This document shows positions 8,454-48,195 of a stretch of DNA of 64,000 nt, piece after piece. The stretch is from Cytophagales bacterium (GTDB lineage Bacteria > Bacteroidota > Bacteroidia > Cytophagales > Spirosomataceae), in assembly GCA_038236215.1 (NCBI GenBank), contig JBBSTD010000014.1:5937-69936 (forward strand). The letters run 5' to 3'. Under the pieces are notes generated by a model. It had not been told where the DNA came from. It was given only the letters and a program-made list of their open reading frames with translations, and made no database searches. The position numbers were made by a program, and so were the translations under genes. Every line of letters starts with the position of its first letter. Positions within the stretch are counted from its first letter, which is position 1.

Positions 8454-8586
8454 AATGAGTGAAAGAGCGAAAGAATGAAGGAGTGGCTTGCTGATGCGGA
8501 GTGGCTTGCTGATGCGGTGAATAGCCAGCAATAGAATTCTTGCCCGTAATCTTTCGCTCTTTATCTCTTTCATTCTTTCACTCATT
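8454..8586. repeat. Heptamer-repeat foldback element with an internal 18-nt tandem duplication
   Basis: GAAAGAG-type units (8454-8479) complementary to TCTTTCA-type units (8551-8586); GGAGTGGCTTGCTGATGC x2 at 8480-8515. Confidence 0.8.
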
Positions 8587-8590
8587 GACC

Positions 8591-10000
8591 ATGAATGTTA
8601 TTGCCATCTTCGATATTGGGAAGACTAACAAAAAACTATTTCTCTTCGACGAAACGTATCAGATTGTCTGGGAGAAGTCGGAGAATTTTGTGGAGATACC
8701 GGATGAAGACGGCGACTTTTGCGACGACGTTCACCAGTTGAAACGTTGGGTAGCCTCTTCGCTAACCGAGGTAATGGCGTTGCCCCAGTTTGTCGTGAAA
8801 GCGGTAAACATTTCGGCGTACGGAGCCAGTTTGGTACACATCGACCAGACCGGGCAACCTCTTACTCCGCTATACAGTTACCTCAAAGTCTTTCCGGCTC
8901 CATTGCAACGCCAGTTTTTCGACACTTACGGGACCGAAGCCGACATTACCCGGCAAACAGCTTCCCCGCTGCTGGGTAATCTGAATTCGGGTCTTCAGTT
9001 GTACCGGCTGAAATACGAACAGCCGGACGTAGTGAAAAAACTGGCTTTTTCGTTGCACCTGCCGCAGTATATCAGCTTTCTGGTAAACAACAAACCCGTT
9101 TCTGACCTCACCAGTATTGGGTGCCATACCATGCTTTGGGATTTCGACCGACAGGCGTATCATGCGTGGGTCGGGCGGGAAAAGCTGGAACGGTATCTGG
9201 CCCCGATTGCCGCATCCGATTCGGCTGTTTCTGTCGAAATAAGTGGTCATTCGGTACAGGTGGGTGTCGGACTGCACGATAGTTCGGCGGCTTTGATTCC
9301 CTATCTGGCTTCGTTTCAGGAGGAGGGCGACGCTGGCTCCTTCGTACTCATTTCGACCGGTACCTGGTGCGTGAGCATGAACCCGTTCAACAGCAATCCC
9401 CTCACGCCCGAAGAGTTACAGTACGATTGCCTGACGTTTATGCACTACAAAGGTCGGCCCGTAAAGGCGTCGCGGTTGTTTGCCGGAAATGAGCACGAAC
9501 AGCAGGTAAAACGGCTGGCCAGCCATTTTCAGGTGCGGGTGGATTCGTACAAAAAGGTAGCGTATGATTCACAATTAATAAGTCAGTTGCGTCAACGTGT
9601 GACGCAGGTGACTACGGAGCGGGAAGGGAAAGGCGACCAGCTTATTTCCATGCACGGTTCCCTTTTTCGGGACCGCGACCTAGCCACTTTTGATTCCTAC
9701 GAAGCAGCCTATCACCAGTTGATGCTGGACATTATGGCGCAACAACTCATCTCGACATCGCTGGTACTGGCCGACTCGCCCGTTCGGCGAATCTTCGTTG
9801 ACGGGGGGTTTGGCAACAATCCCATTTACATGAATCTGCTGGCTATTGCCTTTCCGGACATCGAGGTATATGCCGCATCGGTAGCGCAGGCATCGGCGCT
9901 GGGTGCTGCCCTGGCCATTCATAAGCACTGGAATGGCCAGCCGATTCCCGACAACTGCGTCGCTCTCAAAAAGTACACGGCTCCCCCGGCAGTCCACTGA
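8591..10000 (+). CDS. rhaB: Rhamnulokinase-like FGGY carbohydrate kinase
   Basis: FDIGKTNKK, GLHDSSAAL, STGTW, VDGGF motifs; ATG 8591 preferred over the ORF-track start. Confidence 0.82.
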   Translation: MNVIAIFDIGKTNKKLFLFDETYQIVWEKSENFVEIPDEDGDFCDDVHQLKRWVASSLTEVMALPQFVVKAVNISAYGASLVHIDQTGQPLTPLYSYLKVFPAPLQRQFFDTYGTEADITRQTASPLLGNLNSGLQLYRLKYEQPDVVKKLAFSLHLPQYISFLVNNKPVSDLTSIGCHTMLWDFDRQAYHAWVGREKLERYLAPIAASDSAVSVEISGHSVQVGVGLHDSSAALIPYLASFQEEGDAGSFVLISTGTWCVSMNPFNSNPLTPEELQYDCLTFMHYKGRPVKASRLFAGNEHEQQVKRLASHFQVRVDSYKKVAYDSQLISQLRQRVTQVTTEREGKGDQLISMHGSLFRDRDLATFDSYEAAYHQLMLDIMAQQLISTSLVLADSPVRRIFVDGGFGNNPIYMNLLAIAFPDIEVYAASVAQASALGAALAIHKHWNGQPIPDNCVALKKYTAPPAVH

Positions 10001-10055
10001 CCAGCCGTGCTGGAATAACGCCACCCGGCTTTTAACCATTACCACCAGAAAACAC

Positions 10056-11246
10056 ATGAAACGGAAACGGTTTATCAACCGGAGTGTACTGTTTTTTTGT
10101 GCCCTTACTGCCTTCATGGCATCGGCTCAGAAACTCCCGGCCAAAAAAGAAATCGTGGCTAAAATGACGCTGGCCAACGATTATTTCATGAAAACCTGGA
10201 CCGACCCCGGCAAGGAAATAGTGACCAACAAAACCCGGCCCAGTAACATCTGGACCCGGGCGGTGTATTACGAGGGACTCATGGCCCTGTACGGCATAGA
10301 CAAGCAGCCGCGGTACTACGATTACGCCGTTGATTGGGGCCAGAAGCACCAGTGGGGCCTGCGGAGCGGTGTCAATACGCGCAATGCCGACGACCAATGT
10401 TGCGGGCAGACCTACCTTGATTTATACCAGATAGACCAGGCTCTCGGACGGGCCAAACCCGAACAAATGCACGATATTAAAGGATCCATCGACGCGGTGG
10501 TAAATAGCGATAAAGTGGATGACTGGAGCTGGGTAGATGCCCTGCAAATGGCGATGCCCGTTTTTGCTCAACTGGGTACAATGGACAAAGAACATCCCAA
10601 CGGAACGTCGCCCTATTACGAGAAAATGTACCAGATTTACGCGTACTCGAAAACCAAACACGGGGGCAACGGGCTGTATAATCCCAAAGACCATTTGTGG
10701 TGGCGGGATAAAGATTTCGTGCCGCCCTACAAAGAACCAAACGGGCAGGATTGTTACTGGTCGCGGGGGAATGGCTGGGTTGTGGCCGCCCTGGTGCGGG
10801 TGCTGGACATCATGCCCAAAAACGCAGCGCATCGGAGCGAGTACGAAAAAACGTACCTGGAAATGATGCAGGCATTACCGCCATTACAACGCTCCGATGG
10901 CTACTGGAACGTGAGTTTACACGACCCGACGAATTTTGGCGGTAAGGAAATGACCGGAACCGCTTTGTTTGTGTACGGTATGGCCTGGGGCGTTAACCAC
11001 GGCCTGCTCGACGGGAGAAAATACCAGCCTATTATTGCCAAAGCCTGGAACGCCATGGCGACCGAATCCGTCCACCCAAACGGCTTTCTGGGCTACGTGC
11101 AAGGGACCGGTAAAGAACCCAAAGATGGCCAACCCGTTACCTACGACAGCAAACCCGACTTCGAAGATTACGGTCTCGGCTGCTTCCTGCTGGCCGGAAC
11201 GGAGTTATGTAAGATGAAGAGACGAAAACTAAACCGTAACCCTTGA
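10056..11246 (+). CDS. Secreted glycoside hydrolase family 105/88 (unsaturated rhamnogalacturonyl hydrolase-like)
   Basis: NADDQCCGQ, WSWVDALQM, WSRGNGW motifs; signal peptide from ATG 10056. Confidence 0.85.
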   Translation: MKRKRFINRSVLFFCALTAFMASAQKLPAKKEIVAKMTLANDYFMKTWTDPGKEIVTNKTRPSNIWTRAVYYEGLMALYGIDKQPRYYDYAVDWGQKHQWGLRSGVNTRNADDQCCGQTYLDLYQIDQALGRAKPEQMHDIKGSIDAVVNSDKVDDWSWVDALQMAMPVFAQLGTMDKEHPNGTSPYYEKMYQIYAYSKTKHGGNGLYNPKDHLWWRDKDFVPPYKEPNGQDCYWSRGNGWVVAALVRVLDIMPKNAAHRSEYEKTYLEMMQALPPLQRSDGYWNVSLHDPTNFGGKEMTGTALFVYGMAWGVNHGLLDGRKYQPIIAKAWNAMATESVHPNGFLGYVQGTGKEPKDGQPVTYDSKPDFEDYGLGCFLLAGTELCKMKRRKLNRNP

Positions 11247-11251
11247 AAATC

Positions 11252-11566
11252 ATGGAAGAAATTGCGTTTACAATGAAACTGAAACCCGGAGTGGAGGCTG
11301 AGTACCAGCGTCGGCACGATGAAATCTGGCCGGAGTTGACAAACGTACTGGCCGACGCAGGCATCCGTGATTATTCCATCTACCTGGACCGGGCCACCGG
11401 AACGCTGTTTGCCGTTCAGAAAAAGACGGATACTAACACCGCAGATACATTGCCAGGCCTACCCGTTATGCAGCGGTGGTGGCTGTACATGGCCGATTTA
11501 ATGGAAACCAATCCTGACAACTCGCCGGTCGTCACACCACTGGAACGGGTATTTCACCAGGATTGA
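11252..11566 (+). CDS. rhaM: L-rhamnose mutarotase
   Basis: AFTMKLKPG, EYQRRHDEIWPE, GIRDYSIYL, MQRWWLYMADLM. Confidence 0.92.
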   Translation: MEEIAFTMKLKPGVEAEYQRRHDEIWPELTNVLADAGIRDYSIYLDRATGTLFAVQKKTDTNTADTLPGLPVMQRWWLYMADLMETNPDNSPVVTPLERVFHQD

Positions 11567-11742
11567 TGCTCTCCGATACGGGATTTTGTTCATGGCGTAA
11601 AAGCACTAGTGCCTGTTCATCAGGTATACGAGGCCAGCTTGTGTCTTACCAACATACTCGGCCCTGTAGCCGGTAGTCAGCCACTGAACGCAGTAATTCA
11701 GTTCCGCCCGTAGAAATCGCGTTACTCCGATACTCAAGCCCG

Positions 11743-11975
11743 GGCCGCATCATGAATCATTCGCTGGCTGAATACCACATAGCCGTCAACGCCGACGTAC
11801 ACGACCTCGATATTATTTTCGTGGAAGAACATGACGATATCGTGAATCCTTGAGCGTGAAAGGACTAGGGGAAATCGGGTTAGCGGCCGTTCCGGCAGCC
11901 ATCGCCAACGCCGTTTCCCACGCCACCGGCAAACGCATCCGTAATTTGCCCATTACGCTGGATAAGCTGCTATAG
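11743..11975 (+). pseudogene. C-terminal remnant of a xanthine dehydrogenase-family molybdopterin-binding subunit (PaoC/YagR-like)
   Basis: GRIMNHSLAEYHIAVNADVHDLDIIFVEEHDDIVNP, -1 frameshift at about 11850, then LSVKGLGEIGLAAVPAAIANAVSHATGKRIRNLPITLDKLL-TAG; not in the ORF track. Confidence 0.85.
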
Positions 11976-12060
11976 TTTGTTTGACGTTTGTAGTTTGAGG
12001 TTTGGTGTTTCATCGCGTTAGTAACGACAAACATCAAACCTCAAACTACAAACAAACTAC
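11973..12060. repeat. Heptamer-repeat foldback (nnGTTTG / CAAACnn) between convergent genes
   Basis: TTTGTAGTTTGAGGTTTGGTGTTT (11987-12010) pairs with AAACATCAAACCTCAAACTACAAA (12029-12052) with one G-U. Confidence 0.85.
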
Positions 12061-13649
12061 ACTATCATCTTGCCTTCCAGCACAGGTCGGGTATCTTTTG
12101 AGCCGTTGATTTTAGTCAGGCTTTTCTGGAATTCTACCTGCATGGTGTCGGCACCAAACTGGAGGGTAACCGTTTCGTAATGGGCTGTTTCGATGAATCG
12201 CCACGTCATCAAGAATGTGTTCGGGTCTTGCCAGGTACCGGTAGCGGCTACTTTCCGGTTGTCGCCACCGGGCACTACCGTGGGGGTCAGTGACATCGGG
12301 GCAATGGGAAAGGTGGTAGTGGTGTCAATCCAGCGATTAAGGCCGCAGTTTACCTGATGGTCGCCCTGATTATCGGTCAGTTTGAAGATGCAGCCATCCT
12401 TGCCGAAGCTCAGCGACGCCGATTTAGCGTGCATCGCATTGTCTGGAAACGTAAAGTTTTTACCATTAATCTTATTCGCCATCGGGGAGGATGATTCTTC
12501 TTTCGGGAAGGGTAGAGCCAGCGTTGCCAGTTTCTGGGTTAAAGCCGCCTGGGTAGTTCTGGCCGCCGATAGGCCCGTTCCTTCGAGCGCGGGTAGGATA
12601 TGGTCCCAAACGGCATTCATAATACCCTGCATATCGGCACTTTCGGAGGTGATGGCCACTACCGCATCCAGTTTGGGGAGCACGATGCAATACTGACCGA
12701 AGGCACCATCGCCCCGGTACGCGTCGTGCCGACACCGCCAGAACTGATAGCCATAGCCCTGAATCCAGTCGTTCACGCTGGCATCACCCTTGCCGCCTTT
12801 AGAGGGTACTTCCATGCTGGTGGCATCATTTATCCACGCTTCCGACAGGAGCCGTTTACCATTCCACACGCCTTTTTGCAGGTATAGCTGTCCGAATTTG
12901 GCAATGTCTTCCGTCTTGAGCCGCAGCCCCCAGCCGCCCGTGTTGATACCCTGGGGCGATACTTCCCAGTCTTCCCCTTCGATGCCTAATGGCCCAAACA
13001 GGCGCGGTTTCAGGTATTCCAGCACCGTCTGTCCCGTTAGCTTCTGTACAATGGCCGAGAGCATATAGGTGGCTGCACTGTTGTACACGAACAGCGTGCC
13101 CGGTTTATGCTCGACCGGATACGCCAGAAAACCTTTCACCCAATTGGCCCCTTCGCCTTCCCGGATACTGGACGTTGGCTCTTTTTCATGCCCCGTATTC
13201 ATGGTCAGCAAATCCTTTACGCGCATGGCCGCCAGGTTCTCACTGACCGTTTCGGGCAGGTCTTTCGGGAAAAACGAGATAACCTTGTCTTCCACCGTCA
13301 ATCGTTTTTCGCCCACGGCCATTCCCACGGCCGATGACGTAAAGCTTTTGCTGAGCGAATAGAGGGTATGCTTGTATTGTGGCGCGTAGGGTGCCCACCA
13401 GCCTTCGGCTACCACCTGCCCATGCCGAAGTACCATGACGCTGTGTACATTCAGTTTCTTTGCATCAATGGTGTTCGCAAAATCCAGCAGGCCGCCGGGT
13501 GCCACGCCCTGTGCTTCGGGCAGGCTGCGGGGGAGTTTGCCTGTTTTGGTGGGTACAGTCCAGGCCGATACGGGCAGGGTAGTAACAAGGGTCAGGCCAG
13601 CGGCACCGAAGCCCAGTTGCCGGAGGAAGTCTCTGCGGTTAAGGTTCAT
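12057..13649 (-). CDS. Tat-exported serine hydrolase (class C beta-lactamase-like)
   Basis: NRRDFL twin-arginine signal; SLSK (SxxK) and YNS motifs. Confidence 0.85.
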   Translation of the reverse strand: MNLNRRDFLRQLGFGAAGLTLVTTLPVSAWTVPTKTGKLPRSLPEAQGVAPGGLLDFANTIDAKKLNVHSVMVLRHGQVVAEGWWAPYAPQYKHTLYSLSKSFTSSAVGMAVGEKRLTVEDKVISFFPKDLPETVSENLAAMRVKDLLTMNTGHEKEPTSSIREGEGANWVKGFLAYPVEHKPGTLFVYNSAATYMLSAIVQKLTGQTVLEYLKPRLFGPLGIEGEDWEVSPQGINTGGWGLRLKTEDIAKFGQLYLQKGVWNGKRLLSEAWINDATSMEVPSKGGKGDASVNDWIQGYGYQFWRCRHDAYRGDGAFGQYCIVLPKLDAVVAITSESADMQGIMNAVWDHILPALEGTGLSAARTTQAALTQKLATLALPFPKEESSSPMANKINGKNFTFPDNAMHAKSASLSFGKDGCIFKLTDNQGDHQVNCGLNRWIDTTTTFPIAPMSLTPTVVPGGDNRKVAATGTWQDPNTFLMTWRFIETAHYETVTLQFGADTMQVEFQKSLTKINGSKDTRPVLEGKMIV

Positions 13650-13733
13650 CGTTTCTTTTCAGGATTTATTGTCTGCAATAGAGTAAACAACCGTTAGCCG
13701 GTTACCTACTGAATCGGTTTGGCTTTTATTGAT

Positions 13734-13805
13734 GGTATCACGGACTTCAATCCGTCAGTAGCGTAGTAGTGAGGTAGCAGAGAGCAGACTGAAGTCCGTG
13801 ATACC
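13734..13805. repeat. REP doublet (REPIN-like), GGTATCACGGACTTCARTCYG family
   Basis: Inverted 21-mers at 13734-13754 and 13785-13805 with two mismatches; each carries an internal hairpin. Confidence 0.75.
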
Positions 13806-15562: not shown

Positions 15563-15634
15563 ATGTGTTCCATAAATGTTCCGTCAGCGGGCGATTTAAA
15601 ACACCCGCTGACAGAACATTTACGGAACGCATAC
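15563..15634. repeat. Long imperfect inverted repeat (REP-doublet-like)
   Basis: 29-bp arms at 15563-15591 and 15604-15632 with three mismatches; the right arm reads GTATG... on the minus strand. Confidence 0.7.
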
Positions 15635-24128: not shown

Positions 24129-25469
24129 ATGAAAAAAACGTTACTATCCTTTCTACTTTTTCCTGGTTTGTTTCTGGCAATGGATGGATTGGCGCAAAAG
24201 GCAACCGATTCACTGGCTAAACAAGCCTACCTGACCGATTGTATTCAATACGCTTTGGCGCATCGACCTCTGATCCGGCAGTCGGTTATCGACCAGGAGA
24301 TTGCCGAACGAACCGTGCAAAGTGCCCTGGCGGCCTGGTATCCGCAGCTTGGTGCTGGCTATAGCCTGCAGCATTACCTGAAACAACCCGTTACTATTTT
24401 TCCCGACCCCACTACCGGCGAACCCGTGCCCCGGGTTATTGGCGCTAGAAATACTTCCACAGCCTCCCTCTCCTTAACGCAGAGCGTGTTTAGCCGCGAC
24501 CTGCTGCTGGCTAGCCGAACGGCCGATACCTACCGGGTACAGGCCAGTCAGACAACCGTAAGAAACAAAATCGATGTGGCGGTGAACGTCAGTAAAGCGT
24601 TCTACGACCTGGTGTTGACCCAGCGGCAGGGGGATATTCTGACCGAGGATATCACCCGGCTACAGCGCAGTTTGCAGGATGCTACCAACCAGTACCAGAG
24701 TGGTGTTGTGGATAAAACGGACCCGCAGCGGGCTAAAATTGCGCTTAATAACAGTCGCGCTCAGCAAAAACAGTACCGCGACCTGATTGGGGCAAAGTAC
24801 CAGACGCTGAAACAACTAATGGGTTATCCGCCCAACGCCGTGCTGAACGTAACCTACGACACGCTCCAGCTGGTCAACGAAATAGCGCTGGATACGAATC
24901 AACGGGCGAATCCCAAAAACCGAATCGAATACCAGCTCCTGCTTAGTCAGGGGCGATTGCTGGAGGCTAACGTGCGCTACAATCGGTGGGCGTATCTGCC
25001 AACGGTGTCGGCGTTCGGAAACTACAATCTGCTGTATCAGAATAATGCGTTCGGGCAGCTTTTTGCCCAGACATTTCCTAACTCGTTGATTGGACTATCG
25101 GTCGCCTTACCCATTTTTCAGGGCGGTCGCCGTATTCAGCAGACCAAAATAGCGGAGTTACAGGTCCAGCGGTTAACGTGGGATGAGACCGAACTGACTA
25201 GTGCGGTCGATGCCGAATACGCGCAGGCACTGGCTAATTACAAAGGGAATCTGGCGGCTTATCAGGCACTGAATGAAAACCTGGTGCTGGCAGAGGATGT
25301 GTACCGGGTAATTAACCTGCAATACCGAAACGGGATCAAAACGTACCTGGACGTGACTATTGCCGAAGCCGACCTCCGAACTGCGCGTATCAATGTGTTC
25401 AACGCTCTCTATCAGGTGCTGATTAGTAAGCTGGATGTGCAGCAGGCACAGGGGTTGATAGAATTTTAA
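24129..25469 (+). CDS. TolC-family outer membrane efflux protein
   Basis: Signal peptide; two OEP repeats; first gene of the MFP-RND operon. Confidence 0.9.
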   Translation: MKKTLLSFLLFPGLFLAMDGLAQKATDSLAKQAYLTDCIQYALAHRPLIRQSVIDQEIAERTVQSALAAWYPQLGAGYSLQHYLKQPVTIFPDPTTGEPVPRVIGARNTSTASLSLTQSVFSRDLLLASRTADTYRVQASQTTVRNKIDVAVNVSKAFYDLVLTQRQGDILTEDITRLQRSLQDATNQYQSGVVDKTDPQRAKIALNNSRAQQKQYRDLIGAKYQTLKQLMGYPPNAVLNVTYDTLQLVNEIALDTNQRANPKNRIEYQLLLSQGRLLEANVRYNRWAYLPTVSAFGNYNLLYQNNAFGQLFAQTFPNSLIGLSVALPIFQGGRRIQQTKIAELQVQRLTWDETELTSAVDAEYAQALANYKGNLAAYQALNENLVLAEDVYRVINLQYRNGIKTYLDVTIAEADLRTARINVFNALYQVLISKLDVQQAQGLIEF

Positions 25470-25478
25470 ACTTGTTTG

Positions 25479-25587
25479 CGGTTTACCGTATTCGGTTTAC
25501 GGTTGCGCGGTGCGTTAAAAACTCACCTATGCGCCAGCTACAAGACCGCTTCGCGTAACCGAATACCAAATACCGAAAACCGAATAC
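25479..25587. repeat. Heptamer-repeat foldback (CGGTTTA / CCGAATA)
   Basis: Left units 25479-25507 complementary to right units 25552-25587; ends 5 nt before ATG 25593. Confidence 0.75.
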
Positions 25588-25592
25588 AATCT

Positions 25593-26690
25593 ATGCGCTT
25601 ATCCATTTTACTCACTACCCTCACCCTGCTCACTGCCTGTGGTGAGAAGAAAAATGAACAGCAGGGACCTCCGCCCCCCACACCCGTAACGGCCGTGAAG
25701 GTGACGAAAGGCAACGCTACGTACTACGATGAGTACCCGGCTACGGTAACGGCCCTGCGCGAAGTAGAAATTCAGCCGCAGGTGTCCGGCAATGTGACGG
25801 GCATTTTTTTTCAGGATGGTCAGCAAGTGAGCAAAGGGCAAAAGCTGTACACCATCGACGCGCAACAGTACCGCGCTACCTACGATCAGGCTGTAGCCAA
25901 CCTGCACGTTCAGAAGGCTAACCTCAACCGCGCTCAGAAAGATGCCAGCCGCTATAACATGCTGGCTTCGCAGGATGCCGTAGCTACTCAACTGGTGGAT
26001 AATGCCAACGCAACCCTCGAATCGGCAAAGATGCAGGTAGAAGCGGCTCAGGCCAACATCCGGCAGGTGTCCACCAATCTCAAATACACCACCATTTACG
26101 CGCCGATGAACGGTACCATCGGCATTTCGCAGGTGCGGCTTGGTTCGGCTGTAGCACCCGGCCCTACGCCCATGAACACCATCTCGGAAGATAATCCTAT
26201 TGCCGCTGATGTGCAGGCGGATGCGGCTGATATCGCCCGGTTCACGAAGCTTCAGAGTAAGTCCGGTGTTGTGCGCGACTCCACGCTCATGCTCCAGTTA
26301 CCCGACGGAAACCTGTATAAATACCCCGGTACGGTACGCATCATCGACCGGGCTGTTGACCCCCAAACTGGTACCTTGCGCGTTCGGGTGGGGTTTCCTA
26401 ACCCCGGCAAAACGCTGAAAGTAGGGCTGAACGCCAACATTCGCGTAAAAAACAGCACCGACCAGCCCCAACTCCTGATTCCGTACAAAGCCGTAACTGA
26501 ACAGATGAGTGAGTACTTTGTATTTGTGGTGGGCGATAGCAGCAAGGTTACCCAGAAAAAAGTTACCCTCGGCGCGCGCATTCAGGGCAACGTTGTCGTA
26601 AAAGATGGCCTTACCGAAGGGCAGACCATCGTAACTGGTGGTACGCAGAAGATTAAGGATGGAAGTAAAGTGAAAATCAATGCTGAATGA
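25593..26690 (+). CDS. RND periplasmic adaptor (MFP) lipoprotein
   Basis: Lipobox LTAC; VEIQPQVSG, IYAPMNG, VDPQTGTL. Confidence 0.9.
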   Translation: MRLSILLTTLTLLTACGEKKNEQQGPPPPTPVTAVKVTKGNATYYDEYPATVTALREVEIQPQVSGNVTGIFFQDGQQVSKGQKLYTIDAQQYRATYDQAVANLHVQKANLNRAQKDASRYNMLASQDAVATQLVDNANATLESAKMQVEAAQANIRQVSTNLKYTTIYAPMNGTIGISQVRLGSAVAPGPTPMNTISEDNPIAADVQADAADIARFTKLQSKSGVVRDSTLMLQLPDGNLYKYPGTVRIIDRAVDPQTGTLRVRVGFPNPGKTLKVGLNANIRVKNSTDQPQLLIPYKAVTEQMSEYFVFVVGDSSKVTQKKVTLGARIQGNVVVKDGLTEGQTIVTGGTQKIKDGSKVKINAE

Positions 26691-26766
26691 TAAATGATGA
26701 ATTAAGCTGACGCGAAATAGGCCTGCGGAAGTCCGTTCATTATTAATAATTCATCATTCATAATTT
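26686..26766. repeat. Heptamer-repeat foldback (AATGATR / TCATYAT)
   Basis: Starts in the TGA stop; right arm TCATTAT TAATAAT TCATCAT TCATAAT ends before GTG 26776. Confidence 0.65.
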
Positions 26767-26775
26767 AAGAAAGTC

Positions 26776-30962: not shown

Positions 30963-33536
30963 ATGAAACATGTTTTCCTGCTGGCGGCCCTGGCAACGTT
31001 ATTACTGACCTATCCGTCCAGACTTGTATTGGCCCAGGCATCAACAACGACCTCAACCAGCGTATCATCACCCGCTCAGTTTCTGGGCTATCAACTGGGT
31101 GACCGATTTACGCCCCACCATCGCCTAATTGCCTATGCCGAACAGGTGGCCCGGCAGTTACCCAATCGCGTTAAACTGATTCCTTATGGGCAAACCTACG
31201 AAGGCCGCCAACTGATGGTGGTCGTTGTTGCCTCCGAAGGAAATCTGGCGCGGCTGGAAGAAATCAGAATAAACAACCTGAAACGTACCGGTCTGCTGGA
31301 AGGAACCCCGACCACCACGCCCCAGCCGCCCATTGCCTGGCTGAGTTACAACGTGCATGGCAACGAGGCCGTTAGCTCGGAAGCCTTTATGGAGGTACTG
31401 TATCGGCTGACCAACACCAGTGATGCCGTTACGCAGAAGATCATGAATACGACGGTGGTCCTGCTCGACCCCGGCCTGAACCCCGACGGGCACGACCGTT
31501 ACGTGAACTGGTACAACCAGATGCTGGGTAGTACGCCTAACCCGAACCCCATAGCCCGCGAACACAGCGAACCCTGGCCCGGTGGTCGGTATACCCATTA
31601 TCTCTTCGATCCAAACCGCGACTGGGCCTGGCAAACGCAGGAAAATACGCAGCAGCGTATGGCGCTTTATCAGCAATGGATGCCCCAACTCCACGCCGAT
31701 TTTCACGAAATGGGCGCGGAGAGTGCCTATTATTTTGCGCCATCGGCCAAGCCCTACCACCAGGATATTACGCCATACCAGCGCCAGTTTCAGCAAATTA
31801 TCGGGCAGTATAGCAGTCGGGCCTTCGATAAAAATGGCTGGCTCTACTACACCCGCGAACGGTATGACCTGTTTTATCCCAGCTATGGCGACACCTACCC
31901 AACGTACAACGGAGCCATCGGCATGACGTTCGAACAGGGCGGGGGCGGTCGGGCGGGGCTGGCTTATCAGAAGGATGATGGAGACACGCTCACCCTCCGT
32001 CAGCGCATCGACCACCATTACGCATCGGGCATCGCCACGCTCGAATCCGTTGCCGACCGGCCTGCTGAAATCGTGAAGGAGTTTGGACAGTTTTTCGATA
32101 AAGCCCGCCAAACACCCATTGGGGCCTACAAAAGTTACGTAATCAAAGCCAATGGCGATGCCGGACGAATCAGAGCGTTGCAGCAACTGCTGGACCGGAA
32201 TAAAATCAGCTATGGGTACGCCGGAAAGGCCCAAACCGCTACCGGGGCTTTTAATTACAGTACGCAGAAAACGGAGAAAAATACAGCGGTGGCCGCCGAA
32301 GACATGGTTATTAGTGCCTATCAGCCCAAATCGACGTTGCTTAAAATTCTCTTCGAGCCAAACTCGGCCCTGGAAGATTCGGCTACCTACGACATTACCG
32401 CCTGGTCGTTACCCTACGCCTATGGCCTGCAAACCTATGGCCTGACAACCCGCCTGAATCCAACCAGCACCACGCCCCCGGCTCCCGTGTCTCCGGCATC
32501 CACCAATGCCTACGCCTACCTGATTCGCTGGCAGTCGGTTCCGGCGGTGAAGACGTTAACGGCCCTGATGAAACAGAACGTGCGGGTTCGGGTAGCCGAA
32601 AAACCGTTTGAAGTAGAGGGAAAATCGTATCCGTATGGCACGCTACTAATTACCCGAACCGGCAATGAGCAGTTTGGCGACCGGCTGGGAACATTGGTAA
32701 TGGAAACTGCCATTGCTAACGGTGCTGACTATACGCCGGTACAAACCGGATTCGTTACGACCGGTTCCGACTTTGGCTCCGGTTCAGTGGCCGGGTTGAA
32801 AGCACCCAAAGTGGGTCTTGTAACGGGGGAGGGGACACCACCACCGTCGGCGGGGGAAATCTGGCACTTTTTCGACCAGACCCTCAACTATCCGATTACA
32901 CTGCTGGATGGCAGTTCGCTGGCTAACCTGGCCTGGACGAAGCTGGATGTGCTGATACTCCCGTCCAACTACAACTACAGCCGCATTTTACCCGAAAAGA
33001 CGCTGATGGCGCTGAAAGAATGGATTCGGGCGGGGGGCAAACTCATTGCGATGGAACGGGCCGCATCGTTTCTTGCGGGTAAAGATGGGTTCGACCTGAA
33101 AGAGAAATCAGGTGATGGAGATAAGCCAGATAAAGTTCGCCAGGGAAACAGGATCGATTCGCTCAAAGTATACGCCGACCGGGAGCGTTCGGCCCTCTCG
33201 GACGAAACGCCGGGCAGCATCTACCGGGTCAATATGGACACGACGCACCCACTCGGGTTTGGCCTGTCGGGTGGGTATTACTCGCTGGTACTGAACGCCT
33301 ATAACTTTGATTTTTTGAAGGACGGCTGGAATGTCGGCTACCTGAAAAATGACAATTACGTGGCTGGCTTTTCGGGGAAGAACGTAAAAGGAAAGCTGAA
33401 GAATACCCTCCTGATGGGTGTTCAGACGATGGGGCGCGGCAGCGTTGTGTACCTAGCCGATGACCCGCTCTTCCGGGGTTTCTGGTACAATGGCCAATTG
33501 CTCTTCAGTAATGCCGTCTTTATGGTTGGAAATTAA
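30963..33536 (+). CDS. M14 zinc carboxypeptidase with C-terminal glutamine-amidotransferase-like domain
   Basis: VHGNEAVS, DPNRDW, DFHEMG; signal peptide from ATG 30963. Confidence 0.85.
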   Translation: MKHVFLLAALATLLLTYPSRLVLAQASTTTSTSVSSPAQFLGYQLGDRFTPHHRLIAYAEQVARQLPNRVKLIPYGQTYEGRQLMVVVVASEGNLARLEEIRINNLKRTGLLEGTPTTTPQPPIAWLSYNVHGNEAVSSEAFMEVLYRLTNTSDAVTQKIMNTTVVLLDPGLNPDGHDRYVNWYNQMLGSTPNPNPIAREHSEPWPGGRYTHYLFDPNRDWAWQTQENTQQRMALYQQWMPQLHADFHEMGAESAYYFAPSAKPYHQDITPYQRQFQQIIGQYSSRAFDKNGWLYYTRERYDLFYPSYGDTYPTYNGAIGMTFEQGGGGRAGLAYQKDDGDTLTLRQRIDHHYASGIATLESVADRPAEIVKEFGQFFDKARQTPIGAYKSYVIKANGDAGRIRALQQLLDRNKISYGYAGKAQTATGAFNYSTQKTEKNTAVAAEDMVISAYQPKSTLLKILFEPNSALEDSATYDITAWSLPYAYGLQTYGLTTRLNPTSTTPPAPVSPASTNAYAYLIRWQSVPAVKTLTALMKQNVRVRVAEKPFEVEGKSYPYGTLLITRTGNEQFGDRLGTLVMETAIANGADYTPVQTGFVTTGSDFGSGSVAGLKAPKVGLVTGEGTPPPSAGEIWHFFDQTLNYPITLLDGSSLANLAWTKLDVLILPSNYNYSRILPEKTLMALKEWIRAGGKLIAMERAASFLAGKDGFDLKEKSGDGDKPDKVRQGNRIDSLKVYADRERSALSDETPGSIYRVNMDTTHPLGFGLSGGYYSLVLNAYNFDFLKDGWNVGYLKNDNYVAGFSGKNVKGKLKNTLLMGVQTMGRGSVVYLADDPLFRGFWYNGQLLFSNAVFMVGN

Positions 33537-33633
33537 TTGTGAATGAATGAATGTTTGGAGCACTTCGAGAATTAGTAGCTATGCATTCTAACTATTCATT
33601 CATTCATTCGCTCATTCACACAATCACTCATTA
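33534..33633. repeat. GAAT/ATTC-rich foldback element
   Basis: TAATTGTGAATGAATGAATG versus CATTCATTCATTCGCTCATTCACACAAT; spans from the stop codon to 6 nt before ATG 33640. Confidence 0.7.
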
Positions 33634-33639
33634 TCAGTA

Positions 33640-34614
33640 ATGAAAGCAATTCTCTGCCGCTCGTTCGGCTTGCCCGATACCCTCACGCTGGAAGACGTGC
33701 CGTCGCCCACGCCCGGCCCTGGTGAGGTGCTTATTCAGACGAAGGCCTGTAGTCTCAACTTCCCGGATACGCTGACGATTCAGGATAAATACCAGTTTAA
33801 ACCGCCATTGCCGTTTTCGCCGGGGAGCGAATCGTCGGGCGTGGTGAAAGTCGTGGGGGAGAATGTCACCCACCTCAAACCCGGCGACCGGGTATTTACG
33901 TTCGGGTCGCACGGGGGGCTGGCCGAAGAACGGATTTCGGATGCCCGCGCGACCATCCCAATTCCCGACGGGATGGACTTCATTACCGGCGCGTCGACGC
34001 TGTACGCGTATGGTACATCGTACCATGCTCTGAAAGACCGCGCCCAGTTACTGGCTGGAGAGACTTTGCTTGTATTGGGAGCTGCTGGGGGCGTGGGACT
34101 GGCCGCCGTTGAGCTGGGTAAACTGATGGGCGCTATCGTTATTGCTGCGGCTTCGACGGAGGAGAAACTAGCGGTTTGTAAACAAAAAGGAGCTACTCAC
34201 CTCATCAACTACACGACGGAAGACCTGCGCGAACGGATCAAGAAAATAACGGGCGGCAAAGGTGTCGATGTGGTGCTGGACTCGGTGGGGGATAAATGGG
34301 CGGAACTCGCGATTCGGTCGATGGCTTGGCGAGGGCGGTATCTGGTTGTTGGCTTCGCCGGGGGCGAAATACCTAAAATTCCGCTGAACCTGGCCCTGCT
34401 CAAAGGCTGTGCCATCGTGGGGGTATTCTGGGGCGCATTTACGCAGAAAGAAGCCGCACTTAGCCAGCGAAATATGCAGAAGATAGCTACCTGGGTGATG
34501 CAGGGCAAACTCACCCCGCACATATACAGGCAATACGCGCTAGCCGAAGCTCCGCAGGCACTGACCGATATGATGGAACGGCGGGTTATCGGGAAAGCGG
34601 TAGTCGTGCTGTAG
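33640..34614 (+). CDS. NADPH:quinone oxidoreductase (zeta-crystallin/MDR family)
   Basis: SLNFPD, LVLGAAGGVG, GKAVV. Confidence 0.9.
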   Translation: MKAILCRSFGLPDTLTLEDVPSPTPGPGEVLIQTKACSLNFPDTLTIQDKYQFKPPLPFSPGSESSGVVKVVGENVTHLKPGDRVFTFGSHGGLAEERISDARATIPIPDGMDFITGASTLYAYGTSYHALKDRAQLLAGETLLVLGAAGGVGLAAVELGKLMGAIVIAAASTEEKLAVCKQKGATHLINYTTEDLRERIKKITGGKGVDVVLDSVGDKWAELAIRSMAWRGRYLVVGFAGGEIPKIPLNLALLKGCAIVGVFWGAFTQKEAALSQRNMQKIATWVMQGKLTPHIYRQYALAEAPQALTDMMERRVIGKAVVVL

Positions 34615-42315: not shown

Positions 42316-42382
42316 GTATTCTGGACGTCTACGTCCGGGTGTAATTCATTCCAATTCACCCGGACGTGGACGTCCAGGATAC
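42316..42382. repeat. REP doublet, GTATCCTGGACGKCCACGTCCGGGT family (copy 1)
   Basis: Inverted 26-mers at 42316-42341 and 42357-42382 with two mismatches. Confidence 0.85.
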
Positions 42383-42435
42383 AGACAACTCCTTAATAGA
42401 TTCAATATGAGACAAATCTCACAGCTACGTCATAA

Positions 42436-42476: not shown

Positions 42477-42491
42477 GGGGTAGTCTTGTAT

Positions 42492-43490: not shown

Positions 43491-43930
43491 ATCTGAGCAG
43501 GGGTTTCCTGGATTGTTACGGTGAGGGTTACGTCAAGGTTATTTCTGGTGGCGTTGGAGTAGGGACATACGGCGTGGGCTTTCTGAACGAGGGCCTCGGC
43601 CTGCGCCTGATCCACACCCGGTACGTTGACCACGAGGGTAACGGCCAGACCGAAACCGCCCGCGTCCAGTTTTCCGATGCTCACGGCCGAATTAACGGTA
43701 GTAGGACCGGTTTTCAGTTTGGCGGTACGGATAACGAGGTTGAGCGCACTGTCGAAACAGGCGGCATAGCCAGCCGCAAACAACTGCTCGGGGTTGGTGT
43801 AGGCCCCGCCGGAACCACCCAGTTCGCGGGGGGTGCGTACGTCGAGGTCCAGCACAGAATCGGAAGAGGTTACGTGCCCGTCACGCCCGCCGTTGGCTGT
43901 AGCCTGGGCGGTATAAAGCGATTGAAACAT
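43487..43930 (-). CDS. ohr: Organic hydroperoxide resistance protein
   Basis: [14 protein letters not shown] and VCPYS catalytic cysteines. Confidence 0.93.
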
Positions 43931-43947
43931 GGTTTTTGTTGATTGAT

Positions 43948-44379
43948 TTATTCTTCGTTTGTGAGTTGATTTAAGAGTGCAACTAACTGGTCGCGCAGGT
44001 TAACCGCCTGCTGGTCGGTGAGTTGCAAACGTTGTTGTAGTTGTTCCGGAACGGTGGCGGCCTGTTCGCGCAGGACTTTACCCGCGTCGGTCAACTGAAT
44101 GCTTACCTGCCGCTCATCGATGGTACTTCGCGTTCGGCTAACGAGTCCCTTTTGCTCCAGCCGTTTCAGCAGGGGGGTCAGCGTACCAGAATCCAGCAAC
44201 AGCCGGTCGCCAATGGCGCTGACGGACTGGTTATCCGTTTCCCACAAAAAGAGCATGACCAGGTATTGCGGATACGTCAGGTCCAGTTGTTCGAGCAGGG
44301 GCCGGTAGTGGGCCGTCACCTGCCTGGATAGGGCATATAGCGGAAAACATACCTGATTAGCCAGTGATAAACGATTCAT
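43948..44379 (-). CDS. ohrR: MarR-family organic peroxide sensor
   Basis: QVCFPLY reactive Cys, [22 protein letters not shown]. Confidence 0.9.
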
Positions 44380-44386
44380 TGTCTGC

Positions 44387-44410
44387 AATTATATTGTGTA
44401 CGATTTAATT
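44387..44410. promoter_or_regulatory. OhrR operator candidate
   Basis: Imperfect 24-bp palindrome AATTATATTGTGTACGATTTAATT immediately upstream of ohrR. Confidence 0.55.
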
Positions 44411-44476
44411 AACTGAGGTAAGGCTGATAAAGTTTACTAGCCCCCGACTATTTTATTGAAAACCCGGTGCGGTGTT

Positions 44477-44579
44477 GTGCGAAATAGAAGCTATTGGTGC
44501 GATTTCGCACGTTTTTGTTAAGATTATTTTAGGTAAAAAACTGAATAGTAGAGCGTTGTCTTCTGGCATATTGTTTGGC
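44477..44579 (+). promoter_or_regulatory. Sigma54-like promoter with tandem upstream activator sites
   Basis: GTGCGAAATAGAAG (44477-44490) and perfect GTGCGATTTCGCAC (44497-44510); CTGGCATATTGTTTGGC (44563-44579) has GG-N10-GG spacing. Confidence 0.55.
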
Positions 44580-44607
44580 TTACTAGGGGTAAATCAATCC
44601 ATCCGTC

Positions 44608-45867
44608 ATGGACAAGGAACTTGCCCCGGAACTCGTTAGCCGCTCCCGTAATCGAACCCTGCTCATTGGCGGGGGTGTACTGCTGGTCGTGACGGCGGCT
44701 ATCTTCGGGCTGCGGGATGTCATCAAAACATCGGTCGAAGCTGACAAGATACGGCTGGCAACGGCGGAGGTTGGTCCCGTCGAAAATACCCTGAATGCGA
44801 CGGGTGAAGTCATTCCTGCCTTCGAGCAGGTCATTATCAGCCCTATTCGGGCCAGTATCCGGCGGGTATTACTCACGCCCGGTACGGCTGTCAAACCTGG
44901 TCAGCCCATCCTCGACCTCGACAAATCCCTGACCGAAATAGACCTCGAAAAACTAAACGTTCAACTGGCGCTGAAACGCAACGGCATCGACCAGTTGCGG
45001 ATGAAACTCAATAAGAGCCTGTACGATGCCGAAGTGAACGATAAAATTAAACTGCTGAACATCAACCGGCTAAAGGCCGAACTGGAAAGTGAAAGACGGT
45101 TGCAGAAAGTAGGAGGGAGTACCGGCGAAGAAGTGACCCGCGCCGAAAATGCCCTGCGGGTGGCCGAACTGGAAAAAACCCAATTGGAAAACGACCTCAC
45201 CTACAACCGGCAGTCGATGGGGGCTAGCCTGCGCGAAACAGCTTTACAGGCAGAAATCGAAGAAAAGAACCTGAAAGAATTAACTCACAAACTAAAACAG
45301 GCCGATATTGTAGCCGACCGGCCAGGGGTGCTGACGTGGGTGAATGAAAACATTGGCTCGTCAGTCAGTGAGGGCGAGATGCTGGCCAAGCTAGCCGACC
45401 TGGGCAGTTTCCGCATCGAAGGCTCCTGCTCGGACGTGTACGCTGAACAGGTGAAAGTGGGCTTACCCGTCACGGTGAAAGTTAACGATATTACCCTGCG
45501 GGGCCTGATTGCCCAGGTGAAACCCGCCGTAAAAAATGGCGTAGTACAGTTCGTGGTTCAACTGGACGATAACCGCCACACGTCCCTGCGCCCGAATATG
45601 AAAGTAGACGTTTTCATTGTCACAAACCGGTTGGCACAGGCCGTTCGGGTAGCCAACGGCCCGTTTTTTAAGGGTAAACGCCAGCAGTTTCTGTTTGTGT
45701 TGCCGAAGGGAACCAGCGTAGCCCATCGGCGGGAGGTGGAAACGGGCCTCTCGAACTTCGACTTTGTGGAGATAAAAAGTGGCCTTCGGGCGGGGGAACA
45801 AATCATCCTGACCGATCTGAGCCAGTACGAGCATCTGGACGAAATCACTGTCGCCCCAAAACCATGA
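44608..45867 (+). CDS. HlyD/MFP periplasmic adaptor of an ABC exporter
   Basis: N-terminal TM helix, long coiled coil, LRPNMKVDV. Confidence 0.88.
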   Translation: MDKELAPELVSRSRNRTLLIGGGVLLVVTAAIFGLRDVIKTSVEADKIRLATAEVGPVENTLNATGEVIPAFEQVIISPIRASIRRVLLTPGTAVKPGQPILDLDKSLTEIDLEKLNVQLALKRNGIDQLRMKLNKSLYDAEVNDKIKLLNINRLKAELESERRLQKVGGSTGEEVTRAENALRVAELEKTQLENDLTYNRQSMGASLRETALQAEIEEKNLKELTHKLKQADIVADRPGVLTWVNENIGSSVSEGEMLAKLADLGSFRIEGSCSDVYAEQVKVGLPVTVKVNDITLRGLIAQVKPAVKNGVVQFVVQLDDNRHTSLRPNMKVDVFIVTNRLAQAVRVANGPFFKGKRQQFLFVLPKGTSVAHRREVETGLSNFDFVEIKSGLRAGEQIILTDLSQYEHLDEITVAPKP

Positions 45868-47351
45868 TCCACACGGTTATGAATCGCTTTTTCCTCATTT
45901 TTATCGGGTTGCTGGGCATAATTGAAGGTGCTTCTGCACAAACAACAATTACCACGCTGGCCGAGGTGTTGCAGATGGCGCAGGCGCAATCGGTAGCGGC
46001 CAAACGGGCCAATACGCAAAAACGGACCAACTACTGGCAGTACCGGTCGTATCAGGCGCAGTATAAACCGCAACTGAGTCTGGATGGGACATTGCCCAAC
46101 TTTACCCGCTCGTACGTGCAGGTGACGCAGCCCGACGGTAACATTCGGTTTGAACCCGTTTCGTATAATAACTCGACCCTGAACCTGTCGCTGAGCCAGA
46201 CCATCGCCCCGACCGGCGGGACCATTTTTGTGCAGAAACAACTCCAGCGGTTCGATAATTTCCTTCAGGGTAGCAGGCTCTACAACGGTATTCCGTTCGG
46301 GATTGGCCTGAGTCAGCCGCTGTTGCAGTTCAACCCCATGCGGTGGGACCGCCGGATTCAGCCGCTACTGTACGCCGAAGGAAAACAGCAGTTTATCGAA
46401 TCCCTCGAACAGGTTTCGTTGACGGCTACGACACTCTACTTCGACTTGCTGGTGGCGCAGGTTAATCTGCAAATCGCCGAAACTAACCGGGCCAACAACG
46501 ATACGCTCTACCAGATTGCCCTGCATAAACTGGACCTCGGCCGGATTTCGCAGAATGACTTACTGCAACTGCAACTTAGCGTGCTGAACGCCCAGAAAGA
46601 TCTGGCGTCGGCCCGACAAACGGCGGCTGTGGCTTCATTACGACTACGGTCATTTATTGGTGCCGGACTCGGAACAGAGGGGACGGGAACTGGTATGAAT
46701 CAGTCGCTTAACCTGACCATTCCTGACCAGCTACCCGTTCTGATGGTCGACATGAAACTGGCATTGAACGAAGCGGTGCGAAATCGTTCAGCCGCCATTG
46801 GTTTCCGCCGTCGCACGCTGGAAGCCGAACGGGATCTGGAAAAAGCCCGCAAAAACAACGGGCTGAATGCAACACTCGTAGCGGGTTACGGCCTGTCGAA
46901 TCAGGGACTTACGCTGGGCGATGTGTACGTGCGGCCGCAAAACCGGGAGTATGTTTCGCTCCAGTTCACGCTGCCCATCGTTACCTGGGGACGGGCGCAG
47001 GCGCTGGTAGAAACGGCGAAGGCAAGCCGGGAACTGACGCAGCAGACGGTGGAGCAGGATAAATTGACCTTTGAGCAGGAGATTTTTACGCAGGTAACGC
47101 TGCTGCAGATGCTCCGGCAGCAGGTAACCTTAACGGCGCAGGCCGACGGGATTGGACAGCGTCGCTACCAGATTGCGCAGGAACGGTTTAAACTAAGCAA
47201 CCTGAGCGTGACGGATTTAGGCATCGCCACCCAGGAAAAAGACCGCGCCCGTCGCGATGCCATCCTGGCCCTGCGCGACTACTGGCAGGCGTTTTACATG
47301 CTTCGATTACTGACTTTATACGATTTTGAAACAAACCAGAGAATAAAGTAA
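45864..47351 (+). CDS. TolC-family protein
   Basis: Signal peptide; OEP repeats; overlaps the upstream stop (ATGA). Confidence 0.88.
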   Translation: MIHTVMNRFFLIFIGLLGIIEGASAQTTITTLAEVLQMAQAQSVAAKRANTQKRTNYWQYRSYQAQYKPQLSLDGTLPNFTRSYVQVTQPDGNIRFEPVSYNNSTLNLSLSQTIAPTGGTIFVQKQLQRFDNFLQGSRLYNGIPFGIGLSQPLLQFNPMRWDRRIQPLLYAEGKQQFIESLEQVSLTATTLYFDLLVAQVNLQIAETNRANNDTLYQIALHKLDLGRISQNDLLQLQLSVLNAQKDLASARQTAAVASLRLRSFIGAGLGTEGTGTGMNQSLNLTIPDQLPVLMVDMKLALNEAVRNRSAAIGFRRRTLEAERDLEKARKNNGLNATLVAGYGLSNQGLTLGDVYVRPQNREYVSLQFTLPIVTWGRAQALVETAKASRELTQQTVEQDKLTFEQEIFTQVTLLQMLRQQVTLTAQADGIGQRRYQIAQERFKLSNLSVTDLGIATQEKDRARRDAILALRDYWQAFYMLRLLTLYDFETNQRIK

Positions 47352-47454
47352 ATGAGCGAAAGAATGAGAGAGCGAAAGAGTGAAAGTTGCTGACGTCAGC
47401 ACTTCTCGCGCCAGCAACTTCCGCTCATTCATTCTTTCACCCTTTCACTCTTTC
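47351..47454. repeat. Heptamer-repeat foldback (GAAAGAG / TCTTTCA)
   Basis: Left arm begins in the TAA stop; inner stem AAGTTGCTG/CAGCAACTT; same unit as 8454-8586. Confidence 0.8.
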
Positions 47455-47465
47455 CCAACGCAACT

Positions 47466-48128
47466 ATGATCGCTCTCCAAAACATCGAAAAAGTGTATCG
47501 CACCAGCACCATCGAAACGCTGGCGCTGAACAACATCAACCTGACTATCAAAAAAGGGGAGTTTGTCTCCATCATGGGGCCGTCGGGCTGCGGCAAGAGT
47601 ACCCTGTTGAACGTGATGGGTCTGCTGGATGAACCCTCGAAAGGAACCGTTCAACTCGACGGGCAACCCGTGATGACGTACACCGACAAGGAACTGGCCC
47701 GGTTGCGCAACCAGAAAATCGGCTTCATTTTTCAGAGCTTCCACCTGATCAATGATTTATCCGTGCTCGATAACGTGGAAATTCCGCTCCTGTATCGCTC
47801 GGCTGACGGGAAGTCCCGTCAGGAGTACGCCAGAGAGGCACTCACCAAAGTGGGGTTGAGTAACCGGATGAAGCACTTCCCAAAGCAGCTTTCGGGTGGA
47901 CAGAAACAGCGGGTAGCCATCGCCCGCGCCATCGTGGGCAACCCGGACATCATCCTCGCCGACGAACCCACCGGTAACCTCGACAGTGCAATGGGCAACG
48001 AAATCATGAACATCCTGCAACAACTCAACGACGACGGAACTACCATCGTGATGGTCACCCACGACGAACAAATGGCCAAACGCACGCATCGGCTGATTCG
48101 CCTTTTCGACGGCTCGCAGGTGTTGTAA
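47466..48128 (+). CDS. ABC transporter ATP-binding protein (MacB/LolD-type)
   Basis: [26 protein letters not shown]. Confidence 0.93.
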
Positions 48129-48195
48129 ATGGTTAAAGAGCGAAAGGCTGAATCATTCTTTCACTCTTTGTCTCATTCGCCCTTTCACTCTTTAA
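48128..48195. repeat. Short heptamer-repeat foldback
   Basis: AATGGTTAAAGAGCGAAAGG versus CCTTTCACTCTTTAATCAT and neighbouring TCTTTCA units. Confidence 0.7.

Follow-up and report, generated by a model that had tools for sequence, protein, structure and literature searches.

Seven foldback elements (E1 to E7) lie between genes in a 64,000-nt stretch of a Spirosoma draft assembly (6.46 Mb, 50.5% GC; C14:5937-69936, contig JBBSTD010000014.1; hereafter the window). We consider it moderately probable that they are, for the most part, gene-less palindromic cassettes of the intervening sequence (IVS) type, which occupy stop-to-start spacers, are kept and exchanged at the DNA level, are tolerated by virtue of a C-poor entry arm, and are probably cut by RNase III or strongly structured when transcribed. 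Each cassette is built of mirrored tandem arms of 7- or 8-nt units (the 5' arm being C-poor), often an inner stem specific to Spirosomataceae (GGCTGACGC ... GCGTCAGCC), and a unique centre consisting of a short loop or, in rare cases, of a gene for a four-helix-bundle protein of the family PF05635 (23S rRNA IVS protein). The cassettes are located 3' of genes, where they take up the spacer from stop to start; their arms change together, and their loops flip and turn over.

Inverted repeats were collected genome-wide by using a purpose-written scanner (8-nt seed; at least 18 paired bases; span ≤ 260 nt), with the genome shuffled in 200-nt blocks as the control, and their gene context was taken from a crude gene call. 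The scanner returned 650 long inverted-repeat clusters in the genome and 4 in the shuffled control. Elements were counted as periodic at an arm autocorrelation threshold of 0.55, which 115 of the 650 reached with arms of period 7 or 8; at autocorrelation ≥ 0.6, the best period was 7 in 46 elements, 8 in 48, 9 in 6, 3 in 2 and 6 in 1. Few unit families recur across the genome (GAAAGAGY, GAATGAGT, GGTTTAC, GTTTGAN, AATGATR and TTGRTYAG), with a median stem of 25 bp and an arm GC content of 37%. The periodic palindromes separate co-directional genes in 89 cases, convergent genes in 17 and divergent genes in 6 (baseline 3180/721/730), in agreement with the original prediction, made from the letters of the window, of a class defined by its architecture and placed mainly between co-directional genes. 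About 4% of co-directional junctions genome-wide hold such a hairpin. The positional bias relative to stop and start codons was likewise present throughout the genome: on the stop side the gap has a median of 4 nt (78% within -10 to +12) against 23 nt (28%) for non-periodic inverted repeats, and on the start side the medians are 14 nt and 53 nt, respectively.

The arms of the 115 periodic elements are strongly polar. The 5' arm contains more G than C in 98 and more C than G in 2, and 8% of the bases in this arm are C; because a palindrome is identical on both strands, the 98:2 ratio is a real asymmetry between the two possible arrangements (X...rcX, not rcX...X). No stop codon contains a C. 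At least two reading frames are closed by the 5' (entry) arm in 63 of the 115 elements and by the 3' (exit) arm in 22.

Elements of the window were folded as RNA and compared with 200 dinucleotide shuffles, and five of the seven proved more stable than all 200 (z = -4.4 to -7.9; Table 1). All seven were recovered as inverted repeats with periodic arms at the places where they had been predicted. The upstream stop codon lies inside the 5' arm or 0-9 nt ahead of it, and the distance from the end of the 3' arm to the following start codon is 2-11 nt in the six co-directional elements, both as had been described. The unit length needed correction: the arms had been called mostly 7-mers, which holds for three of the seven, whereas the other four have a period of 8 (or 4/8), and the unit given as GAAAGAG is the 8-mer GAAAGAGY. 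The loops (12-91 nt) are without an open reading frame (ORF); their centres differ, in line with the earlier description of them as unrelated, but several carry a common core (GCTGACGC/GCGTCAGC). The weak fold of E4 is explained by its 5' arm, which is 14 nt shorter than in an orthologous locus (L002; L-numbers denote individual loci). A Rfam scan of the window at the gathering threshold matched a tRNA only and placed no RNA family over the elements.

Table 1. Periodic elements of the window, with their fold statistics and flanking genes (gene names at E1 and E3 to E7 from Pfam; positions are those of the window).
Element	Position	Arms and other features	z (interval folded)	Upstream side	Downstream side
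E1	8454..8586	GAAAGAGY 8-nt arms; 91-nt loop	-4.4 (8447-8595)	sugar-isomerase-like TIM-barrel gene, TAA 8448-8450	FGGY kinase gene, most likely ATG 8591
E2	11973..12059	GTTTGAN 7-nt arms; ~27-32 bp stem; extent exactly stop to stop	-7.9 (11965-12070)	TAG 11973-11975, in one arm	convergent gene 12057-13649 (-), stop 12057-12059 in the other arm
E3	25470..25587	GGTTTAC-type 7-nt arms	-4.7 (25465-25595)	outer-membrane efflux protein gene, TAA 25467-25469	HlyD-type membrane-fusion gene, ATG 25593
E4	26686..26766	AATGATR 7-nt arms; core GCTGACGC at arm/loop boundary	-1.9 (26680-26775)	membrane-fusion gene, TGA 26688-26690 within 5' arm	AcrB-type pump gene, GTG 26776
E5	33534..33633	GAATGAAT / GAATGAGY arms; weak fold	-2.4 (33525-33640)	M14 peptidase gene, TAA 33534-33536	Zn-dependent dehydrogenase gene, ATG 33640
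E6	47351..47454	GAAAGAGY 8-nt arms; inner stem GTTGCTGACG / CGCCAGCAAC	-6.9 (47345-47465)	outer-membrane efflux protein gene, TAA 47349-47351	ABC ATPase gene, ATG 47466
E7	48128..48195	short AAAGAGCGAAAGG arms	-6.1 (48120-48200)	ABC ATPase gene, TAA 48126-48128	MacB/FtsX permease gene, most likely ATG 48198
E8	6448..6511	stem GGTTTACCTCCGGTGC / GCACCGGAGGTAAACC around core GGTTGGCTGAC; extra GTAAACC units		gene 4334-6439, TAG 6437-6439, element starting 9 nt past it
Solo arm	58082..58110	G-poor AACCGAATACCGTAAAC; 3' half of a GGTTTAC-type element	-0.25 (58060-58135)

E8 was absent from the original prediction. A half element had been reported near 58082, and there a solo arm is indeed present; it has no fold and no 5' partner, and a possible remnant of the core (CTCAGCCA) lies upstream of it at ~58050. 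The loop of E1 holds a perfect 20-nt tandem duplication (8481-8520; GGAGTGGCTTGCTGATGCGG twice), and the duplicated unit contains a variant of the core, GCTGATGCG.

The core is a stem, GGCTGACGC ... GCGTCAGCC, at the boundary of arm and loop, and it occurs across different unit families. GGCTGACGC is present 49 times in the genome, 28 of these in intergenic DNA (expected share 15.6%), and the hairpin GGCTGACGC-N(5-30)-GCGTCAGCC occurs 17 times, with loops of variable sequence that are 9-27 nt long (mostly 10-16 nt); the reversed pattern, used as a control, gave 0-1 matches. Among nine sampled genomes of other Spirosomataceae, five contain 3-52 copies of the core hairpin and four contain none, and it was not found in 141 genomes of other families of the order. 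An all-against-all comparison of loops revealed nothing in common beyond the core of ≤ 17 nt. The elements had been thought to spread without sequence identity, and this we cannot uphold: the arms belong to a few multi-copy unit families common to loci and genomes, and many copies carry a family-specific core. Recurrent unit families and a common core mean that the class is not free of sequence identity, and that its centre is the variable part. A further multi-copy repeat (tagagacgcaaggtattgcgtctc...ggatggtttt-GCTGACGC; C60:18792-18947, C72:11625 and 12670, C21:14133, C55:32657, C110:4190), sometimes in tandem clusters, has the GCTGACGC motif in common with the core of the periodic hairpins.

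One intact copy of a PF05635 gene is present in the genome (C136:1738-2031, minus strand), within a cassette (C136:1606-2170) in which a GAAAGAGY arm and a CTCTTTC arm surround the gene, together with a small extra hairpin, and which fills the space between two neighbouring genes; in Spirosoma luteum the same junction is free of any cassette, its 133-nt spacer containing a palindrome that is not periodic. Of ten other Spirosoma genomes, nine contain 1-6 copies (24 matches in total). In nearly all cases a C-poor array precedes (5') and the complementary array follows (3'), whichever way the gene is oriented. The bracketing units are of the same kinds as those of the empty hairpins, and the GCGTCAGC core is sometimes found at the boundary. 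That PF05635 genes in this genome and in nine other Spirosoma are bracketed by the same kinds of periodic arms speaks directly for the idea, raised in the original prediction, that the hairpins are the empty form of a mobile cassette. Protein clades match arm units: proteins 69-80% identical have GAAAGAGY/GAATGAGT arms, those 82-84% identical have GATTGAGT arms, those 75-88% identical have GGAGT-type arms, and two proteins 63% identical at different junctions (L097 and L105) both have ATAATGR arms. This correspondence indicates that arms and gene travel together.

A decayed PF05635 pseudogene with five in-frame stops was also seen in the genome (C48:3087-3597). The arrays that flank it are unlike each other (GTTAGTCAGTTGTCAGTTAG to the left, CTACTACTTATTACCC... 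to the right), which suggests a hybrid or rearranged cassette. A search for other cargo in periodic inverted repeats of long span (≤ 3 kb) returned only the C136 PF05635 cassette. Paired arrays in the R...Y arrangement on two further contigs (C94 and C13) were considered as cargo cassettes and rejected, as they enclose ordinary genes (ABC ATPase, HemL-like) with a separate element on each side.

Orthologous junctions, whose comparison had been proposed as a check, were then compared; sites usually stay occupied, and the unit family differs. The junctions occupied by E1 to E7 (J1 to J7) were examined in the genomes of four relatives with flanks ~80-87% identical; the membrane-fusion protein is 92-95% identical to those of S. 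luteum, S. spitsbergense and two metagenome-assembled genomes (MAGs). The unit family changes between genomes at J1, J2, J5, J6 and J7, and the set of genomes with a common occupant varies by junction. The window and S. spitsbergense (with a different loop) have GAAAGAGY units at J1, S. luteum and MAG154 have AATGATR, and MAG133 has a third unit. At J2, the core and loop are 38/40 identical among S. luteum, MAG133 and MAG154, with the loop inverted in MAG154, and the arms differ between these genomes while being self-complementary within each; in S. spitsbergense the site is an ordinary A-tract/hairpin/T-tract terminator. Two closer pairs of loci (L013 and L015; L006 and L045) show compensatory arm changes around unrelated loops. 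Target-site duplications were not evident at any of J1 to J7. The J4 junction, from membrane-fusion protein to pump, holds a hairpin with a C-poor 5' arm in ~22 of 26 Spirosoma loci, in Rudanella, in both Fibrisoma (weak), in 2 of 6 Fibrella and in 1 of 2 Nibrella, and in 0 of 12 Larkinella loci. Its units vary by species (AATGATR, GAGGAGC, GAAAGAGY, GATTGAGT, GGTTTAC with core, or the purine-only GGAGGAAAGGG), and array lengths vary between orthologues. From the comparisons at J1 to J7 we conclude that the slot is inherited and its occupant replaced or rewritten, the arms changing as a pair; a heritable slot with an exchanged occupant is a feature of the design in this genome.

The stem mismatches bear on the level at which complementarity arises. 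Selection on the fold of the sense transcript should enrich G.U pairs. In the 89 co-directional elements the mismatches are mostly transitions, and the sense strand has 75 G.U against 86 A.C, that is, no excess of G.U, which lowers the weight of a purely RNA-selected device. This spectrum fits arms that were made complementary at the DNA level and then decayed; together with the paired rewriting of arms and the inversion of a loop, it points to a DNA-level origin of the complementarity.

On the preferred reading of the elements as IVS-type cassettes, the complementarity of the arms would be restored by copying that uses the palindrome itself as template (template switching or conversion, as in quasi-palindromes), slippage would alter the arrays, and recombination with copies that have units or core in common would replace elements; templated correction within quasi-palindromes is an established mutational mechanism. 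The upstream ORF would be closed at the edge of the element by a TGA, TAA or TAG of the C-poor entry arm, in either orientation of the element, since repeat units whose length is not divisible by three distribute stops among the frames. Stems of 20-40 bp in an operon transcript would be substrates of RNase III, as the stems of rRNA IVS are, and the genome encodes rnc (RNase III). If the enzyme acts on them, cuts or strong structure would arise in the polycistronic transcript at the boundaries between cistrons; should subunit stoichiometry be affected, this would then be a by-product and not the reason that the elements exist.

Several observations weigh against this reading. Comparison of the loops with PF05635 genes by blastx and blastn gave only noise and no gene remnants, so that the gene may be a passenger of hairpins that are themselves the primary form; more than 115 hairpins in the genome compare with one intact PF05635 gene and one decayed copy, and one MAG (G017) has hairpins and no PF05635 match. 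No linked recombinase or transposase was found. That one junction stays occupied across genera could also reflect selection for a host function. The purine-only arms of relatives (GGAGGAAAGGG types) contain no stop codons, so that the stop-codon rationale is not universal.

Host function is the core of the alternative to which we give the most weight, although we regard it as unlikely: the elements would be operon punctuation selected by the host, RNA devices for translational coupling, mRNA stability or attenuation that set, for example, the ratio of outer-membrane protein, fusion protein and pump, with sequence free to change as long as the stem persists. The occupation of the junction between the membrane-fusion protein and the resistance-nodulation-division (RND) pump in Spirosoma, Rudanella, Fibrisoma and some Fibrella and Nibrella, with complete turnover of sequence, would be expected of such devices, as would the compensatory arm changes, the tight stop-start placement and the location of four of the seven window elements in efflux operons. 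Conserved occupancy is the one positive line of evidence for a host-selected role in operon stoichiometry. The lack of a G.U excess and the small share of co-directional junctions that are occupied argue otherwise; moreover, such elements are also found where convergent genes end and on both sides of a small gene that looks selfish, Larkinella and several Fibrella have the same operon free of hairpins, and E4 in the window itself has a damaged 5' arm. If the long hairpins instead served as terminators or attenuators, halting or pausing RNA polymerase at gene ends, their scarcity between divergent genes (6/112 against ~16% expected), the 17 copies at convergent ends and the ordinary terminator that takes the place of the periodic hairpin at J2 in S. 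spitsbergense would be accounted for. We hold this to be highly improbable, because 79% lie between tightly spaced co-directional genes, including those of obligate partners (ABC ATPase/permease and membrane-fusion protein/RND pump), and because AT-rich stems of ~25 bp (arm GC 37%) are unlike the canonical short GC-rich stem with a U-tract. T-rich tails are also rare (≥ 5 T in the next 8 nt in 8% of periodic elements), although neither class of inverted repeat, periodic or non-periodic, has them. The absence of T-tails, the AT-rich stems and the location in operons for products needed together make an efficient terminator role unlikely.

A neutral origin, in which replication slippage and palindrome formation in unconstrained spacers leave functionless by-products and the link to PF05635 is coincidental, seems to us very unlikely. 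Many bacteria are known to contain simple-sequence repeats with a bias to heptamers (Mrazek 2007, as cited in PMC4679880), orthologues differ in array length, and the mismatch spectrum looks neutral; such a process is hard to reconcile with the extreme 98:2 polarity, with the same few unit families and core at unlinked loci and in different genomes, with arms of this kind at nearly every PF05635 gene in ten genomes, and with conserved occupancy of particular junctions. Least probable of all is movement in trans by a Y1 transposase (of the IS200 type or a REP-associated tyrosine transposase, RAYT), as of miniature transposable elements with inverted repeats (MITEs) or repetitive extragenic palindromic (REP) elements. 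An intact Y1 transposase gene adjoins E8 in the window (6596-7036, minus strand). As in REP elements and bacterial interspersed mosaic elements (BIMEs), the hairpins here are short extragenic palindromes at gene 3' ends, and the core (GGCTGACGC-N10-15-GCGTCAGCC) has a conserved stem, a variable loop, many copies and a lineage-specific distribution; the arms, however, are not REP stems tagged with GTAG/CGTC. The transposase passes the cut-off for IS200 (70.8 bits against 55) but not that for the REP-associated type, REP_Tyr_transpos (24.5 bits against 80), and is flanked by unrelated hairpins of its own (CCCACAnATTCATnTGTGGG); four Y1_Tnp matches were obtained, this gene being the only one in the window, and no RAYT was found. 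On these grounds the RAYT/REP reading fails. Unlike MITEs, the loops have no common internal sequence beyond the core and J1 to J7 show no target-site duplications; as no two elements have a loop in common, there is no sign of copy-and-paste bursts.

Other features adjoin the elements or resemble them. The Y1 gene belongs to an insertion sequence of the IS200/IS605 family directly beside E8 (6520-7130; ORF intact, NF033573), whose end hairpins are CCCACAAATTCATTTGTGGG (6529-6552) / CCCACACATTCATGTGTGGG (7101-7126) and AACCGTTTCAACGGTT / AACCGTTAAAACGGTT. The gene upstream of E2 is a C-terminal remnant, of which only the last 46 codons are kept before the element (11567-11975; ...GKRIRNLPITLDKLL*). 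The window genome appears to carry a deletion there, since relatives hold 5-10 kb of extra DNA between the homologues of ~11568 and ~11743. A non-periodic palindrome with 29-bp arms (ATGTGTTCCATAAATGTTCCGTCAGCGGG...) at 15563-15632 has a centre with dozens of matches, on both strands, in all four close relatives and represents a separate dispersed palindromic family. Two copies of a palindromic repeat, GTAYYCTGGACGNCNACGTCCGGGT, lie downstream of genes (42316-42382 and 52101-52171) and form a REP-like family distinct from the periodic hairpins. The longest-ORF calls of the FGGY kinase (TTG 8540) and the MacB permease (ATG 48129) begin in a 3' arm; the true starts are most likely those of Table 1, which are conserved in relatives. 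The elements thus lengthen ORF calls and displace predictions of start codons, and their repeated arms may hinder draft assembly.

A bolder reading, which we rate as quite unlikely, sees in the stop-to-start spacers inherited docking sites that serve a system of cassette exchange. Cognate PF05635 ring proteins would read the 7/8-nt arrays as addresses, with one unit for each subunit, and would promote replacement, inversion or spread, and the gene-less copies would be non-autonomous riders. If so, 23S rRNA IVS and the unexplained heptamer repeats of many phyla would be one mobile system.

For decades, intergenic repeats with a heptamer bias have been reported from cyanobacteria (short tandemly repeated repetitive sequences, STRR), Xanthomonas and Beggiatoaceae, and intervening sequences of rRNA are on record from Coxiella and Leptospira; we know of no accepted origin or function for either. 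The repeat type is already known and poorly understood, and the present elements are a new form. Intergenic heptamer arrays that abut start or stop codons are common to the elements described here, the cyanobacterial STRR, the repeats of Mrazek 2007 and the TAACTGA direct repeats of Beggiatoaceae, cyanobacteria and some Bacteroidetes (MacGregor 2015, PMC4679880), the last of which, in forward orientation, provide stops in all three frames. The TAACTGA repeats differ in being single-unit and mostly direct arrays, with one inverted pair reported and no palindromic cassette architecture described. Closer in layout are the intergenic heptamers of Xanthomonas (GGGAATC) and Nostoc (GGGGAYT) (Rehm et al. 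2015, PMC4692102). In Xanthomonas, 70-75 "convergent" pairs per genome are capable of forming stem-loops and favour aligned ORFs; stops are directly followed by the G-rich strand, and starts are directly preceded by the C-rich strand. Arrays between aligned ORFs, the same polarity and convergent pairs are all found in the Spirosoma genome described here. The single G-tract unit per Xanthomonas genome was read as a G-quadruplex, whereas many "dialects" coexist here, and GAAAGAGY, AATGATR, GGTTTAC, GTTTGAN and GAATGAGT have no GGG run and hence form no quadruplex. The same paper draws no link to PF05635 cassettes, and a limited literature search returned no paper that connects such cassettes with intergenic heptamer hairpins.

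ORF-bearing IVS of 23S rRNA are known from Coxiella burnetii (Warrier et al. 2016, PMC4990558), Leptospira and Salmonella. Their terminal inverted repeats form a stem of ~28 bp, and the 5' arm contains tandem heptamers in strain-variable number (GACAGAT, two or three copies, in Coxiella); the central ORF encodes a PF05635/S23p four-helix bundle and is prone to decay, and the sporadic distribution has been read as horizontal transfer (PMC4990558). Both a long stem (≥ 20 bp) from terminal inverted repeats and tandem repeats within the arm are present in the elements described here, and PF05635 genes in Spirosoma are bracketed in the same design. In contrast to IVS, the window elements lack the PF05635 ORF, which is present only at C136:1606-2170 and in ~20 cassettes of relatives; copies lie between protein-coding genes and not in helices of 23S rRNA (the assembly contains no 23S gene); and more than 100 ORF-less copies per genome are found, with several kinds of unit (7 or 8 nt) and often a lineage-specific inner core. 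Cleavage of IVS stems by RNase III in rRNA has been shown experimentally (PMC4990558), whereas for the Spirosoma elements we infer it. What sets the present elements apart is that heptamer arrays and IVS are united in one design, mirrored 7/8-nt arrays with or without the gene for the IVS protein. If this link is true, it would provide a single frame for rRNA fragmentation elements, "simple-sequence" heptamer repeats and a source of strong RNase III-type structures within operons such as those of efflux pumps.

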